A stretch of DNA of 64,000 nucleotides, from contig CAUVXB020000001.1 of NCBI GenBank assembly GCA_963555825.3, forward strand, positions 2,176,001 through 2,240,000, given 5' to 3'. Source of the stretch: Alphaproteobacteria bacterium (GTDB lineage Bacteria > Pseudomonadota > Alphaproteobacteria > JAAXGF01). Shown here in pieces: positions 22,146 to 27,588 of the stretch. Each line of letters begins with the position of its first letter. Positions within the stretch are counted from its first letter, which is position 1. The notes under the pieces were generated by a model. It searched no databases and was not told the DNA's origin. It saw only the letters and a list, made by a program, of their open reading frames with translations. The translations under genes were made by a program, and so were the position numbers.

Positions 22146-23690
22146 ATGAAACGCATGACGCGAATTGGCGTTGCCGCCGCGGTCGCGACGCTATTGGTCG
22201 TCGCCGGCATCGCCCGCCTGGCCGATCGGCCGGCGCCCGTCGCCGACCCGCCCGTCGGCGGCTACGCCGAGGCGCCGTGCTGGTTCGACGTCGACCTCGA
22301 TCGCACGGTCGTCTGCGGCGCGTTCGTGATCCCGGAGAACTGGGATGTTGACGGTTCACGCACACAGCGCCTTTCCATCGTCACCTTCAAGGCGGCGCGC
22401 GGTTCGGGCGCGGCGGCGCCCATCCTGTTCCTCAACGGCGGACCGGGCGACCGGGTGCGCACCCGCACCGACAACGAGGTCCGCGATTGGGCCGATTGGC
22501 TCAAGCGCGAGACCTGGACCCATGAGCGTGACTTCATCGTACTGGCCCAGCGCGGCACCAACTGGACCGACGCCAACCTCGCCTGCGCCGAGCTCGGCGA
22601 CCCTCGGCTGTACGCCGGTGTATCGGAACAGCCGGGCGCCGAGACCGATTGGCGCACCGACACCAAACGAGCGTACGAGGCATGCCGCGACGGACTCGTC
22701 GCCGCCGGCCACGATCTGGCGGCCTACAGCACATACCAGGGCGCCAAGGACGTCGCCGGGCTCAGACACGCCATGGGCGTCGACGGCTGGGTGCTCTACG
22801 GCGTCTCCTATGGCACGCGCCTGGCGCTCACGGTGATGCGCGATCATCCGCGGGGCATCGACGCCGCCGTGCTGGATTCGGTCTGGCCGCCCGAAGTCGG
22901 GGTCGGCGCCGACGACTCCGCCGCCTTCATGGCGACGCTGACCAAGATCGCCGAGGCCTGCCGGGCCGACGCGGTCTGTAACGGTCGTTATCCCGACGTC
23001 GTCGGCGCGTTCGTCTCGTCGATCGAACGCCTGCGCCGCGCGCCCGTCGAGATCTCCGTCCCGGGCACCGGCGGCGCCAAGTCGCTGTACGTTCTCTACG
23101 ACCCCACCTTGTTCGTCGACACGCTGTATTTCGCGATGTACTGGTGGGATACGGTGAAGACGATACCGAAGGCGGTCGACGGCTTCGCGCGGTCGGATTT
23201 CGACGCCTTCGTCGGACTCGCGCGCGATTACATCGACGACCCGCAATACGAGGCCTTCGCCCACGGCACGGCCACCGCGATCAACTGCAACGACAACCTG
23301 GCGGTCGATGCCGCCGTCGACTGGGACGCGCAGGTGGCGGCGTATCCGTTTCTGCGTGAATGGATAGACGACTTCAACGACGACACGTTCTGCGACGACT
23401 GGGCGCTCGACGTCGCGCGCCGCGGCACGGCGGCACCCACCGTGAGCGATATTCCGACGCTGCTGCTCGCCGGCGGGCTCGACGTCGCGACGCCGGCCGA
23501 ATACGCGCGCATGACCGCCGCCCGACTGTCGGCGTCCCATCTGTTCGTCTTCCCGGCGACGAGCCACGACGTCATCGACAGCCACCAATGCGCCAGCGAC
23601 TTGGTCGCCGCGTTCCTGGCCGACCCGGCCCCGCGGCCAGCGCCCGGCTGCTTCGACCCCGACGAATCGGTCCAATTCGACGACGACTGA
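22146..23690 (+). CDS. Exported alpha/beta hydrolase (TAP-like peptidase/esterase)
   Basis: Signal/anchor peptide, LNGGPG, QRGT, GVSYG nucleophile elbow, D(VATP) and H(DVI). Confidence 0.88.
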
Positions 23691-23877
23691 CCTCACGGCC
23701 TCCGTATGCCACGGCCTCATGCTCCAACGTCTCTATTCACGCGGAGACGCGGAGCGGTCAAGTTGGTCGAAACGCGGCTCATTCAATGCGTTAGGCCGGG
23801 GCGCGGCAGCCCCAATTCCCCCGCCGACGCGCTCCGCGTCTCCGCGTCTCCGCGTGAGTTCGGGGCACCATCTATTC

Positions 23878-23944
23878 GGTGTCAGACACCAATTTTACCT
23901 ATTATTTTCAATAATCTAACATACGAGAAATAGTGTCTGACCCC
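23878..23944. repeat. Short inverted-repeat element with AT-rich core
   Basis: GGTGTCAGACACCAATTT ... AAATAGTGTCTGACCCC. Confidence 0.7.
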
Positions 23945-23989
23945 ATTAAGTTCCGGAGTTCGTTTGGGGGTGGCGGCGCGGTGGTGGGC

Positions 23990-24106
23990 TCAGATGATGG
24001 CGTGGCGCACCTTGGCCGAGACCCACTCGCTGACCACCACCGTGGCGATGATGATGAGCAGGATGACGGCGGCCGGATCGAACTCGTAGCGATCGAAGGC
24101 GGTGTT
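23990..24106 (-). pseudogene. C-terminal remnant of a PhnE-type phosphonate ABC permease
   Basis: NTAFDRYEFDPAAVILLIIIATVVVSEWVSAKVRHAII* with no upstream part. Confidence 0.65.
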
Positions 24107-24144
24107 CGGCGTCGCGCCCTCCGGGCCGCCGCGCGCCCCAAAGC

Positions 24145-24717
24145 CTAATCGTTGCCAACGGTTCGATTCACGCGGCGGCGCGGAGACGCGGCGTAGACGA
24201 TTTGCCGGCGCAATGGGTCGCCTTCGGGCACGCGGGGATGGTCGAAATCGCGCGACGGATCACGGCTCATGCCGATGCGTTTCATGACGTTGACCGAAGA
24301 TGTGTTGGCCGTCGCGGTATAGGCGACGACTTCATCGATCCGCAGATTTGAGAAGCCATGGTCGAGCCATTTCTCGGCGGCTTCGGTGGCATAGCCGTTG
24401 CCGACGAATTGCGGATCGAGCTGCCAGCCGATTTCGAAATGCACATCATCCGAAAATGGCAAATAGTCCGGCACGGGCCGAATGCCGACGTCACCGATAA
24501 CGGCGCCGTCGGCTTTTCGCTCGACGACGGCATAGCCACAGCCTGTCTCGGTTATGGTCTCGATCTGCTTGTCGATGAAGTCGTCCGACTCGGCGGGCGT
24601 TACGACACCCGTATGATAGATCCGCGTTTGCGGGTTACCGGCGATCGTGGCGAACACGGGCCGATCTTCAGCGCGGTGGTTGCGGATGATGAGGCGCTCG
24701 GTTTCAAAGATGATCAA
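24145..24717 (-). CDS. GNAT (RimJ/RimL-type) N-acetyltransferase inside a repeat unit
   Basis: ETERLIIR, FEIGWQL, GNGYATEAA, N..S..VMKRIGM, DFDHP; TTG start after repeat-derived GGAGG. Confidence 0.9.
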   Translation of the reverse strand: MIIFETERLIIRNHRAEDRPVFATIAGNPQTRIYHTGVVTPAESDDFIDKQIETITETGCGYAVVERKADGAVIGDVGIRPVPDYLPFSDDVHFEIGWQLDPQFVGNGYATEAAEKWLDHGFSNLRIDEVVAYTATANTSSVNVMKRIGMSRDPSRDFDHPRVPEGDPLRRQIVYAASPRRRVNRTVGND

Positions 24718-24769
24718 TTAACCCCCCTCCGCGTCCTCCGCGCCTCCGCGTGCTCATCTTGAGCCGCAC

Positions 24770-25213
24770 CTAACGACCATCACCGTTTCGATTCACGCGG
24801 AGACGCGGAGACGCGGAGGGTTCAAGATCATTAACGATCCGCTTGAGTCCCTCTTTAAGCGTCGGCGCGCCGAAATTGATCAACAATCCGACCGACAAAT
24901 TCATGAGACGCAGATAGGTCAGCACCTGCTTCGGGTGAACGGATTGAAGCCGCTCGACCGACTTGATTTCAACGACAACGCGCGACTCGACCAGCAAATC
25001 CACGCGGAGCCCGTCATCGAAATGCAGGCCGTCATAGTCGAACGATACCGGTTTCTGCCGCTCGACCAGCAAGCCGCACCGCTGCAAATCGCGCGCCAGC
25101 ACCGTCTCATAGACTGACTCCAGCAAGCCCGGCCCAAGCCCCGTGTGTAGCTTGTATGCCGCGTCGACAATCTCGCCGGTGACGTCGTCCAATGATTCCG
25201 CCGTTGTCATCAA
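24770..25213 (-). CDS. GxxExxY protein (PD-(D/E)XK nuclease-like)
   Basis: LGPGLLESVYE motif, RVDLLVE...VEIK, QVLTYLR, GLLINFG. Confidence 0.93.
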   Translation of the reverse strand: MMTTAESLDDVTGEIVDAAYKLHTGLGPGLLESVYETVLARDLQRCGLLVERQKPVSFDYDGLHFDDGLRVDLLVESRVVVEIKSVERLQSVHPKQVLTYLRLMNLSVGLLINFGAPTLKEGLKRIVNDLEPSASPRLRVNRNGDGR

Positions 25214-25280
25214 TCTTCTCGGCGTCCTCCGCGCCTCCGCGTGCCCCGTCTAGCTGTTAACTGTTACCGGCCGTTTAAGT

Positions 25281-25429
25281 CACGCGGAGACGCGGAGTGC
25301 GCGGAGAACTCGAGATCATTCACGCCCCGTGCGAAACCCGTAAGCCGCGTCAACAATCTCGCCGGCGGCGCCGTCGAAAGCCTTTACTGTCACCATTAAA
25401 CTACTCCGCGTCCTCCGCGTCTCCGCGTG
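25281..25429 (-). mobile_element. Internally deleted miniature of the GxxExxY unit
   Basis: MVTVKAFDGAAGEIVDAAYGFRTG (N-terminal homolog) joined out of frame to VNDLEFSA (C-terminal homolog), with both flanking repeats kept. Confidence 0.8.
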
Positions 25430-25455
25430 CCCCCTATTGTTTCGCTGACGCCCGC

Positions 25456-27588
25456 CTATGGCCCGCGGCGGCGCTTCTTCGACTTGCGCTGCTGGAAGGC
25501 GCCGTGGCGGCCGCGGCCGTAGGGCTGGCCGGGCGCACCGACCTTGGCCTTGTGATGGCGCGGCACGACGCCGAGCTCGATCGCCTCGAGGCGCTGGATC
25601 TCGTCGCGCAGCCGGGCGGCCTCCTCGAACTCGAGGTCTGCGGCGGCGGCGCGCATGCGCTTGTTCAGATCGGCCAGGTGCGTCTTGAGGTTGTCGCCGA
25701 CCAGGTGAAGCACGTCGCCGGTGTCGACCGTCACGTAATCGGCCTCGGCGACCGAATGCAGGATGTCGTTGACCTGTTTGCGCACGCTCTCGGGCGTGAT
25801 GCCGTTGGCCGCGTTGAACGCCTGTTGCTTCTCGCGCCGCCGGTTGGTCTCGCCGATCGCCGCCTCCAGGCTCCGGGTCATCTTGTCGGCGTAGAGCACA
25901 ACGCGGCCGTCGATGTTGCGCGCGGCGCGGCCGATTGTCTGCACCAGCGAGGTCTGCGAGCGCAGGAAGCCCTCCTTGTCGGCGTCGAGGATGGCGACCA
26001 GCGCGCATTCCGGGATGTCGAGCCCCTCGCGCAACAGGTTGATGCCGACCAGCACGTCGAAGGCGCCGAGGCGCAGGTCGCGGATGATCTCGATACGCTC
26101 CAGGGTGTCGATGTCGGAATGCAGGTAGCGCACCCGGATGCCCGCCTCGTGCATGTACTCGGTGAGGTCCTCGGCCATGCGCTTGGTCAGCGTGGTGACC
26201 AGCACGCGTTGTCCCTTGGCGGCGCAGTCGCGGCACTCGGCCATCAGGTCGTCGACCTGGTTCTCGACCGGACGCACGATGCAGACCGGATCGATCAGCC
26301 CGGTCGGGCGGATCAGCTGCTCGGTGAAGACGCCGCCGGTGCGGCCGAGCTCCCACGGCCCCGGCGTCGCCGAGACGTAAATCGCCTGCGGCCGCATGGC
26401 GTCCCATTCCTCGAACTTCAGGGGCCGGTTGTCGATGCAGCTCGGCAGCCGGAAGCCGAAATCGGCGAGCGTCGATTTGCGGTTGAAGTCGCCGCGATAC
26501 ATGCCGCCCAGCTGGGGCACCGCGACGTGGCTCTCGTCGACGAAGATCAGCGCGTTGTCGGGCAGATACTCGATCAGTGTCGGCGGCGGCTCGCCCGGCG
26601 CGCGCCCGGTCAGGAAGCGTGAATAGTTCTCGATGCCGGCGCAGTGGCCGACCGTCTCGAGCATCTCCAGATCGAAGGTCGTGCGCTGCTCGAGCCGCTC
26701 GGCCTCCAAGAGCTTGCCGTTGTCGCGGAACCAGGCCAAACGCTCCTTGAGCTCGGCGCGGATGCCGACGATGGCCTGCTTGAGCGTCGGGCGCGGCGTC
26801 ACGTAGTGGCTGTTGGCGTAGACCTTGACCGCCTCGAGCGCCGCGGTCTTGTGGCCGGTCAGCGGGTCGAATTCGACGATCTCCTCGATCTCCTCGCCGA
26901 AGAGCGACAGCCGCCAGGCCCTGTCCTCGTAGTGCGCGGGGAATATCTCGACGACGTCGCCGCGCACCCGGAAGCAGCCGCGCGTGAAGTCCGCATCGTT
27001 GCGCCGGTACTGCAGCTCGACGAGTTGGCGCAGCAATTGCGCGCGGTCCACCTGGCCGCCGACCTTCAACTCGATGATCATCCGCGCGTAGGTCTCGGGC
27101 GAGCCGATGCCGTAGATGCACGACACCGAGGCGACGATGATGACGTTGTCGTTCTCGAGCAGCGCGCGGGTCGCCGAGTGGCGCATGCGGTCGATCTGCT
27201 CGTTGATCGAGGCGTCCTTCTCGATATAGGTGTCGGTGCGCGGCACGTAGGCCTCGGGCTGGTAGTAGTCATAATACGAGACGAAATACTCCGCCGCGTC
27301 GTCGGGGAAGAAATTCTTGAACTCGCCGTAGAGCTGGGCCGCCAGCGTCTTGTTCGGCGCCAGCACCAGCGCCGGCCGGCCGACCCGCTCGATCACCTTG
27401 GCCATGGTGTAGGTCTTGCCCGAGCCGGTGACGCCCAACAGCACCTGATCGCGCTCGCCTTGCGCCAGCCCGGCGACCAGCTCCTCGATCGCCTTCGGCT
27501 GATCCCCCGCCGGCCGGTAGTCGGAGACGAGGCGGAACGGGCCGGTTTTGGGCGGGGATGCGGGGTGCGTTGCAACTTGGCTTGGCAT
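25456..27588 (-). CDS. uvrB: Excinuclease ABC subunit B
   Basis: [33 protein letters not shown]-terminal UVR domain. Confidence 0.98.

Follow-up and report, generated by a model that had tools for sequence, protein, structure and literature searches.

The window analysed here is a 64-kb stretch of an alphaproteobacterial genome (contig CAUVXB020000001.1, positions 2,176,001 to 2,240,000). Our subject is a set of four short units next to uvrB, each bounded by inverted repeats, one of which encloses a gene for a predicted nuclease of the GxxExxY family. The motif CACGCGGAGRCGCGGAG (at most two mismatches) has ten matches in the window, and every one lies within 23738-25429; 100 shuffles of the window gave a mean of 0.29 matches and never more than two. 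The ten matches correspond to eight sites, two of which count double where the octamer repeats in register. These sites, called arms below, are built from CGCGGAGR octamers and alternate in orientation, so that they delimit four units of 120, 584, 450 and 149 bp. Eight alternating repeats and four units of these sizes had been proposed from the sequence alone (below, the sequence-only reading), and they are confirmed, together with the quoted outer flanks, TTCGATT before two left arms and CCCC after two right arms. All four units lie downstream of uvrB, but units 1 and 2 are not adjacent, as a spacer of 310 bp separates them.

The uvrB, GxxExxY and GNAT genes are all on the minus strand, and the features of the locus are listed in Table 1. 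Read in gene orientation, a unit consists of a head, (T)CACGCGGAG-G-CGCGGAG-GA-CGCGGAG, an interior, and a tail, CTCCGCG-T-CTCCGCG-T-CTCCGCGTG(A). Each arm is CAC followed by three octamers and is 26-30 nt long. The head arm carries GGAG/GGAGG a few bases 5' of the start codon. The tail arm is part of the open reading frame (ORF), at its 3' end, and is translated; the stop codon is in the flank. Unit 4 keeps the head arm and about 27 codons, followed by the last few codons and the tail arm, with 76-84% identity to unit 3, which bears out the proposal that it is a deleted copy of the GxxExxY unit. Folded as single strands, the units without a gene form long hairpins (z -4.9 to -7.8); the DNA fold of unit 1 has -42.7 kcal/mol (z -4.9) and that of unit 4 has -48.9 kcal/mol (z -6.5). 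The tail-spacer-head junctions of neighbouring units also fold, with z -4.5 and -7.3.

Table 1. Features of the uvrB locus (window positions) and related repeats elsewhere in the same genome (contigs C1 and C2).
Feature	Position	Strand	Remarks
Alpha/beta-hydrolase gene (TAP-like)	22146-23690	+	
Unit 1, gene-less, 120 bp	23738-23857		arms 23737-23756 and 23830-23857; long hairpin fold
Spacer between units 1 and 2, 310 bp	23858-24167		permease remnant and AT-rich hairpin inside
AT-rich stretch	23878-23944		
Permease gene remnant	23992-24126	-	
GNAT acetyltransferase gene	24145-24717	-	PF13302, E 1.4e-29
Unit 2 tail arm	24168-24191		degenerate (TCACGCGGCGGCGCGGAGACGCGG); overlaps last GNAT codons
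Unit 2, 584 bp	24169-24752		arm pair with GNAT gene inside
Unit 2 head arm	24727-24753		direct repeat of head arms of units 3 and 4; GGAGG 8-10 nt before GNAT start codon
Stretch absent from X8 related population, 702 bp	24755-25456		units 3 and 4 with spacers; X8 contig
GxxExxY / PDDEXK_3 nuclease gene, 147 aa	24770-25213	-	PF13366, E 1.1e-37; TIGR04256, E 7.9e-39
Unit 3 tail arm	24793-24818		translated ...PSASPRLRVN, end of GxxExxY ORF
Unit 3, 450 bp	24794-25243		arm pair with GxxExxY gene inside
Unit 3 head arm	25218-25243		motif match
Unit 4, 149 bp	25281-25429		arms 25281-25306 and 25404-25429; internally deleted GxxExxY unit
uvrB, flanking housekeeping gene	25456-27588	-	stops 26 nt from last arm; same orientation as units
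Orphan hairpins	C1:644067-644158; C2:226584-226785, 251626-251728, 1452509-1452608		arms GAACCACAGAGACACAGAG...
Orphan hairpins (rest)	C2:1773301-1773411, 1807112-1807212, 2738106-2738195, 3127830-3127903		arms GAACCACAGAGACACAGAG...
Solo octamer arrays	C2:1081748-1081863, 1083238-1083357, 1811401-1811448; C1:893240-893271		same octamer type as orphan hairpins

The gene-in-hairpin unit is found far beyond this window. A scan with one genome per species gave 467 stretches encoding GxxExxY relatives, and the best 80 loci (56-78% identity) were examined. For each gene, the 160 nt before it were compared with the 160 nt after it for inverted repeats, with 303 shifted controls. The flank-to-flank inverted repeat exceeds the 95th percentile of the controls in 62 of the 80 loci and the control maximum in 57; the 80 loci come from at least nine phyla. 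The median score is 19.5 at the GxxExxY loci versus 8 in the controls. The repeats are the CGCGGAG-type octamer motif, with the exception of L095, where the strongest repeat is another sequence. A motif search identifies 52 complete gene units of 425-480 nt. The expected enrichment of the repeats beside GxxExxY genes is therefore seen across genomes, and gene and arm pair together form a unit that is conserved across phyla.

Paired change is seen between the two arms of a unit. At position 6, 44 units have a GC pair and 7 an AT pair; at position 14 the numbers are 40 and 8. In some lineages all six octamers are swapped together, to CGCGAAG x3 or CGCAGAG x3. GxxExxY genes that are only 45-50% identical to the one in the window have arms of CACAGAGA x3 (G116 and G278) or CACGAAGN x3 (G158). 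At least 67 of the 80 ORFs translate the tail arm in one and the same frame (...LR[VI]N), 52 of them with R[LI][RG][VIL]N and 15 more with one change. The ORFs continue for 1-28 residues past the tail arm into unrelated flank, and these tails vary; conservation therefore stops at the arm.

The position of the arms relative to the ORF could also reflect a function in RNA, an explanation that we consider unlikely. Here the head would pair with the tail of its own or of the preceding unit in the transcript and would gate translation, RNase III cutting or message stability; the dispersed hairpins described below would be processing or terminator-like sites, and the nuclease would process RNA or merely be a regulated gene. 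The fixed frame of the tail arm and the GGAG of the head near the start codon agree with this, as does the strong folding of both the within-unit and the between-unit pairings. No sigma-70-like promoter was found in 23500-25700, 33 of the 46 non-sphingomonad loci with a call have an upstream gene that points the same way (from crude ORF calling), and the sphingomonad unit lies inside the fab operon. However, the mispairs in the arms are G-T in 15 cases versus A-C in 12, i.e., without a sense-strand wobble signature, and there are GAAG-type arms that contain no GGAG. Structure alone also leaves the conservation of the octamers across phyla and the joint change of all three octamers in both arms unexplained, and an RNA-level function does not explain the presence and absence of gene and hairpins between congeners or the arm-bounded indel, both discussed below. 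Rfam gave nothing above threshold, the best matches being plant miRNA-precursor look-alikes with 33 bits versus a gathering score of 96.

A precedent for RNA-level processing is offered by the ORF-bearing intervening sequences (IVS) of 23S rRNA, which are built alike (444 nt with a single small ORF and a 28-bp terminal stem that RNase III cuts; PMC4990558). Those of Coxiella and Leptospira, with the S23p ORF, resemble the GxxExxY units in length (~430-450 nt), terminal stem (~28 bp) and single small ORF, as well as in a sporadic distribution and suspected horizontal transfer, and RNase III cleaves the 28-bp stem of the Coxiella sequence (PMC4990558). In contrast, the IVS are located inside 23S rRNA, whereas the GxxExxY units have protein-coding genes on either side and contain a nuclease ORF, and the genome of the window contains no PF05635 gene. 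We take the IVS ORF to be a four-helix bundle of this family, PF05635.

The arms are also found without the gene. Among 41 relatives, the arm motif is present only in the window's own genome (G000; 6.04 Mb in two contigs, C1 and C2, 99.3% complete) and in G016, a 100% complete genome from another family of the same class. In G000, the single TIGR04256 match is the GxxExxY gene of unit 3, and the motif is found at the uvrB locus and in one gene-less 134-bp unit (C2:1430129-1430262), i.e., five units in total; three other two-mismatch matches look like chance. G016 has one GxxExxY gene inside arms and 48-51 arm matches, and both arms are within 140 nt of each other at 21 of the 31 fetched places, mostly as hairpins of ~63 bp. 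Five further gene-bearing genomes, G411-G415, reached through their loci, have 11-52 arm matches each (controls 0-1), and four of the five arm pairs more than 300 nt apart in these genomes enclose a GxxExxY gene.

The association was also examined in 401 genomes, sampled evenly from the class, using a degenerate arm pattern with the reversed pattern as control (maximum 5). Six or more arm matches are found in eight of the 401 genomes, and a GxxExxY homologue (E<=1e-15) is present in six of these eight versus 15 of the 393 others (Fisher p 2.6e-7, in which kin are not independent, as G116 and G278 belong to one genus). Dispersed gene-less hairpins of this arm type occur for the most part in gene-bearing genomes.

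Some of the hairpins have a more complex surrounding. In G016 (L036-L066), two other palindromic families, GCGAATGCGGGCCACCCAGGTG / CTGGGTGGCCCGCAT and GGGGAGGTCGACGCGCG...GCGGGTGGGG, flank many of the octamer hairpins as inverted pairs, and the octamer hairpins then lie in the loops of larger hairpins, which gives mosaics similar to bacterial interspersed mosaic elements (BIME). Convergent neighbour genes are common around the G016 hairpins (from crude ORF calling, in which the flags for a position inside an ORF look spurious). In G414 (L172, L174 and L182), three near-identical octamer hairpins lie within a larger repeat that has its own inverted ends (GACCGATCGACATTCA...). Tandem gene-less units at a constant period surround the GxxExxY gene in L103:2065-3800, a Limisphaerales genome (period 164 nt with 28-nt spacers), and in L104:2833-3643, from Caldilinea (87 nt). 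These tandem arrays look like local amplification and not separate insertions.

A single-copy enzyme gene flanked by inverted repeat copies, with the same repeat in gene-less, hairpin-forming doublets scattered between the genes of the same genome (here G016 and G411-G415), is also the arrangement of repetitive extragenic palindromic (REP) sequences, their doublets (REPINs) and the REP-associated tyrosine transposase (RAYT), as set out in PMC3116915, PMC5581495 and bioRxiv 10.1101/2022.05.22.493013. A further likeness is the long vertical inheritance in one order, here Sphingomonadales. The flanked gene, however, encodes a 147-aa PD-(D/E)XK nuclease (PF13366) and not a Y1/HUH transposase (PF01797), the arms are arrays of three octamers and not a REP palindrome, the tail arm is inside the ORF, the unit interiors are variable and the mixing between phyla is strong. 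The proposed parallel to RAYT/REPIN on a different enzyme holds in this sense, since G016 combines a single gene for an unrelated enzyme with dispersed arms and lacks any Y1_Tnp match.

The same facts bear on the idea that the hairpins are ordinary REPs or REPINs moved by a RAYT and flank the GxxExxY gene by chance. The hairpins are intergenic, like REPs, and Y1_Tnp (PF01797) matches do exist in G000 (three) and in G173, G199 and G116. But no Y1_Tnp match exists in G016 with its many arms, the three Y1_Tnp genes of G000 are far from every arm, and arms are present at 57 of 80 independent GxxExxY loci. The idea is close to refuted, and we regard it as extremely improbable.

G005, a genome of the same family without arm matches, has the gene order uvrB, a 387-aa membrane protein, GNAT (71% identical) and a DUF1538-like gene pair, and this pair is also located to the left of the window locus. 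No inverted repeat surrounds the GNAT gene in G005, and the window GNAT leaves the sequence of its relative only after ...QIVY, where the tail arm begins. Arms are present at none of 80 loci with GNAT homologues in metagenomes; the closest GNAT locus in metagenome contigs, with 67% identity, is without arms (a single close locus, from a search for the X8 variant lineage introduced below). Because the synteny with uvrB and the DUF1538 pair is kept in the arm-free G005, GNAT is, judged by gene order, a resident gene bracketed by arms and not mobile cargo. In L078, another resident-looking gene, in opposite orientation, lies between two arms. From these two cases it follows that arms can come to bracket resident genes. 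The view of gene-less and internally deleted units as derivatives or companions of the gene unit is supported, but the sequence-only reading of the GNAT unit as a cargo-carrying derivative fails.

Lineages differ by whole units. G200, a congener of G016, has no arm match and no protein match at E<=1e-15. The orthologous intergenic region, between hydantoinase and TerB-DnaJ genes, has 95 nt in G200 versus ~533 nt in G016, where the unit accounts for 446 nt; the intergenic DNA is too diverged for a base-exact junction. Empty sites in G200 were also looked for at three G016 hairpins, but there the flanks have diverged too far (66-77% identity) and the contigs end. For the locus of the window itself, metagenome run X8 contains a 309-nt contig (depth 75) beside contigs of the window strain (depth 80-86). 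With ~87-92% similarity to the window, this contig connects 24754 with 25457 via 16 other bases. In the related population in X8, uvrB is consequently followed by a short spacer, the head arm of unit 2 and GNAT, without units 3 and 4, and the anticipated polymorphism of units between lineages is real. The left break of this arm-bounded indel is 2 nt outside the arm. The indel can be read as recombination between two directly repeated head arms, because the head arms of units 2, 3 and 4 are direct repeats with 96% identity.

Recombination of this kind could also be the work of a host recombinase. The units would then be pdif/Xer- or integron-like cassettes, with the arms as recombination sites and GxxExxY as the commonest passenger. 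The X8 indel can be read in this way, the units form arrays with alternating arm orientation, and a resident GNAT gene is bracketed by arms. However, no integron integrase above the cut-off was found in G000 (best TIGR02249 match 79 bits vs 265) and none near the locus, which speaks against the attC/integron alternative that the sequence-only reading had left room for; the nearest match to a generic tyrosine recombinase is ~77 kb away. Almost all long units hold GxxExxY (the four of five arm pairs mentioned above), none of the 80 GNAT loci has arms, and the octamer type follows the GxxExxY subfamily. Neighbouring units also share no site; each has its own two arms, with spacers of 36-40 nt. 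We regard this explanation as quite improbable.

Integron attC and pdif/Xer arrays likewise consist of small units with hairpin-forming or inverted sites and differ between lineages unit by unit, but here there is no IntI, each unit has its own two arms and the content is nearly always the same gene. The attC R/L core site has the consensus GTTRRRY, and pdif modules have 28-bp XerC-spacer-XerD sites that are common to adjacent modules. The arms, of the form TCACGCGGAG(N)CGCGGAG..., have no attC core at their ends. Inspected by eye, they consist of octamers in arrays, with a pair for each unit, unlike pdif sites.

The inheritance of the gene unit is different inside and outside one order. In 26 loci of Sphingomonadales both flanks are shared, and the unit is located between fabD and fabG, co-directional with both. 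Outside the sphingomonads, flanks are common only to small groups of 2-3 loci, and the protein tree outside the sphingomonad clade mixes at least nine phyla with no non-proteobacterial phylum monophyletic (a quick, weakly resolved tree, in which the labels are those of the submitters and many records are metagenome-assembled genomes). The GxxExxY protein of L115, a record titled Arthrobacter sp., groups in the tree with its Sphingomonas aquatilis counterpart (support 98), and the locus has fabD/fabG flanks as in sphingomonads, so this is probably a mislabelled or contaminated assembly. Phage records gave no match, and plasmids gave matches in only 5 of 72,556 records, mostly megaplasmids, so no vehicle could be identified.

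Strong mixing of phyla, a small single-domain nuclease and clean presence and absence at orthologous sites would suit a homing-type selfish gene. In such a system the nuclease would cut arm-free sites and repair from an occupied copy would insert the unit, the arms being the edges of the cassette and not the substrate; the abrupt end of conservation at the arms, with variable ORF tails beyond, agrees with this. However, the insertion sites are unrelated, as the small groups of loci with shared flanks outside the sphingomonads reveal no common target, and the gene-less hairpins, the arrays and the octamer build are left unexplained. Homing is thus highly improbable.

The protein itself is clearly assigned, with 129.4 bits to PF13366 (cut-off 22) and 132.6 bits to TIGR04256 (cut-off 35). 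An alignment of 32 sequences shows G29, E32, Y35, E36, D72, E82 and K84 to be invariant, i.e., the GxxExxY motif and a D...ExK signature. The AlphaFold model (pLDDT 89.7) has a predicted alpha/beta PD-(D/E)XK fold. In a wide structural comparison the best match is 3ijm_B (Z 8.3), followed by BpuSI, CinB, Cas4, TT1808 and Hjc at Z 5-8, all generic PD-(D/E)XK folds, so a specific functional analogue could not be assigned by structure. A sequence search of the PDB gave nothing below E 0.36, and Foldseek against the PDB gave no match at E<=1e-3. The family is large, with 17,631 representative clusters at E<=1e-3. An entry in a survey of PD-(D/E)XK proteins lists it as 'Unknown ... multiple transfers' (PMC3424549), and a passage elsewhere mentions it in passing (PMC8934634).

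Tandem-fused GxxExxY proteins of 275-295 aa occur naturally. In three of them (P0011, P0013 and P0021, 282-295 aa), GxxExxY, D and ExK are all retained in the first half, while the second has lost the GxxE glutamate and ExK. Natural fusions with a degenerate second half suggest that the working form of GxxExxY is a dimer. The three fusions are pseudo-dimers with one active site and are possibly nickases.

The reading that we favour, with little more than even confidence, is that GxxExxY units are widespread mini-elements of ~440 bp whose nuclease, likely as a dimer, recognises and cuts its own arms and thereby drives copying, loss and recombination of the units. The dimer would bind the octamer arrays of both arms, as duplex, fold-back or cruciform, with a predicted cut near the TCACG ends of the arms. 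After the cut, host repair and arm-to-arm recombination would copy units, delete them or exchange them. Unit 1, unit 4 and the C2:1430129 unit, all without the gene, would rely on the GxxExxY protein in trans. The architecture across phyla, the empty site in a congener, the arm-bounded indel and the joint occurrence of the gene with dispersed arms are shown; each step that involves the protein, its action on the arms and its part in mobility included, we infer. The array with a deletion derivative, the bracketed resident gene and the unit-wise polymorphism point to arm-to-arm recombination and not to classical transposition. In transcripts, perfect 26-bp stems are expected RNase III substrates; the head/tail stems would form such double-stranded RNA and hide the GGAG ribosome-binding site. 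The units would thereby probably also shape the expression of uvrB, GxxExxY and GNAT.

Several observations weigh against this reading. A nuclease of 147 aa has no obvious means of joining DNA strands, and no target-site duplication or direct repeat outside the arms was found in the window, in G016 or in the 52 gene units. In Sphingomonadales the gene unit is old, fixed and vertically inherited, and not hopping, because it has one fixed place, fabD-fabG, in the 26 loci. The link between gene and arms is also imperfect: G173 and G199 have 10 and 18 arm matches and no TIGR04256 match, G116 has 46 CGCGGAG-type matches and genes of the other two types only, and one and the same arm can contain both GGAG and GAAG arrays in Sphingomonas, so that a strict matching of arm type and gene fails. 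G000 contains only the five units of CGCGGAG type, and it has at least eight complete CACAGAG-type hairpins, an orphan family without cognate gene. The interiors of the gene-less units are mostly unrelated to each other, i.e., these are not simple copies of one master. Finally, many of the G016 hairpins and 3 of 16 in G414 are located inside other repeat families. Such hairpins could have spread as passengers; because the G414 copies lie inside a larger repeated element, some hairpins appear to travel with another element.

The comparison with insertion sequences (IS) and their miniature inverted-repeat transposable elements (MITE) is similarly divided. Terminal inverted repeats around one gene, common to full-length and deleted copies (unit 4), and the existence of gene-less copies are as in IS/MITE pairs. 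On the other hand, the sole ORF is a 147-aa nuclease with no known strand-transfer transposase fold, no target-site duplication is seen, multiple copies of near identity are lacking and most genomes have the gene unit once. The units thus share the defining feature of none of the systems compared (the Y1 transposase of RAYT/REPIN, the transposase and target duplication of IS/MITE, the IntI and attC of integrons, the rRNA location and PF05635 of the IVS); the likeness lies in their logic and, in the case of the IVS, also in dimensions and build.

A few other features of G000 and of the locus should be mentioned. The orphan hairpins, with arms GAACCACAGAGACACAGAG..., belong to the octamer type found around GxxExxY genes in G116 and G278; in one case an arm has grown to 15 octamers, and solo arrays have 12-14 octamers. 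The IVS protein PF05635 was considered as a partner of the orphan CACAGAG hairpins and rejected, as G000 has no PF05635 match. Between unit 1 and the GNAT unit, an ABC-type permease gene has left its 3' end (...EWVSAKVRHAII and a stop codon) as a remnant. This remnant is 74-88% similar to two neighbouring genes of relatives (G005, G021 and G023) and has no second copy in G000. The AT-rich stretch in the same spacer, within a genome of 65% GC, contains a terminator-like stem (GGTGTCAGACACC, then a T run) and a 17-nt inverted repeat, and has 73% similarity to C2:2371696-2371765. The hydrolase gene separates unit 1 from the DUF1538 gene pair. It is, by comparison of gene order, a further local insertion, because G005 of the same family has GNAT directly beside the DUF1538 pair.

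No description of the arms, of the gene-in-hairpin layout or of the link between family and repeat was found in the openly searchable papers, a scope that leaves aside subscription journals and bioRxiv supplements. If the prediction is true, GxxExxY arms as the substrate of the nuclease would make an undescribed kind of selfish DNA element. A wider proposal, which we would place somewhat short of an even chance, is that the GxxExxY family, with more than 17,000 clusters, comprises the enzymes of new mobile or recombination elements based on PD-(D/E)XK. The arms would here be portable sites that are cut by a dimer, spread gene-less hairpins, swap units and bracket resident genes. What the window adds is a tandem array with a deletion derivative, an arm-enclosed resident gene and a natural unit-wise polymorphism. 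Among the protein families listed without a known function, PF13366/TIGR04256 belongs to the larger ones, and a defined DNA partner gives it a directly testable function. The link between gene and arms explains a class of intergenic hairpin repeats in many phyla, and, if the reading is true, a new enzyme class would join the short list of those that maintain REP-like repeat populations.

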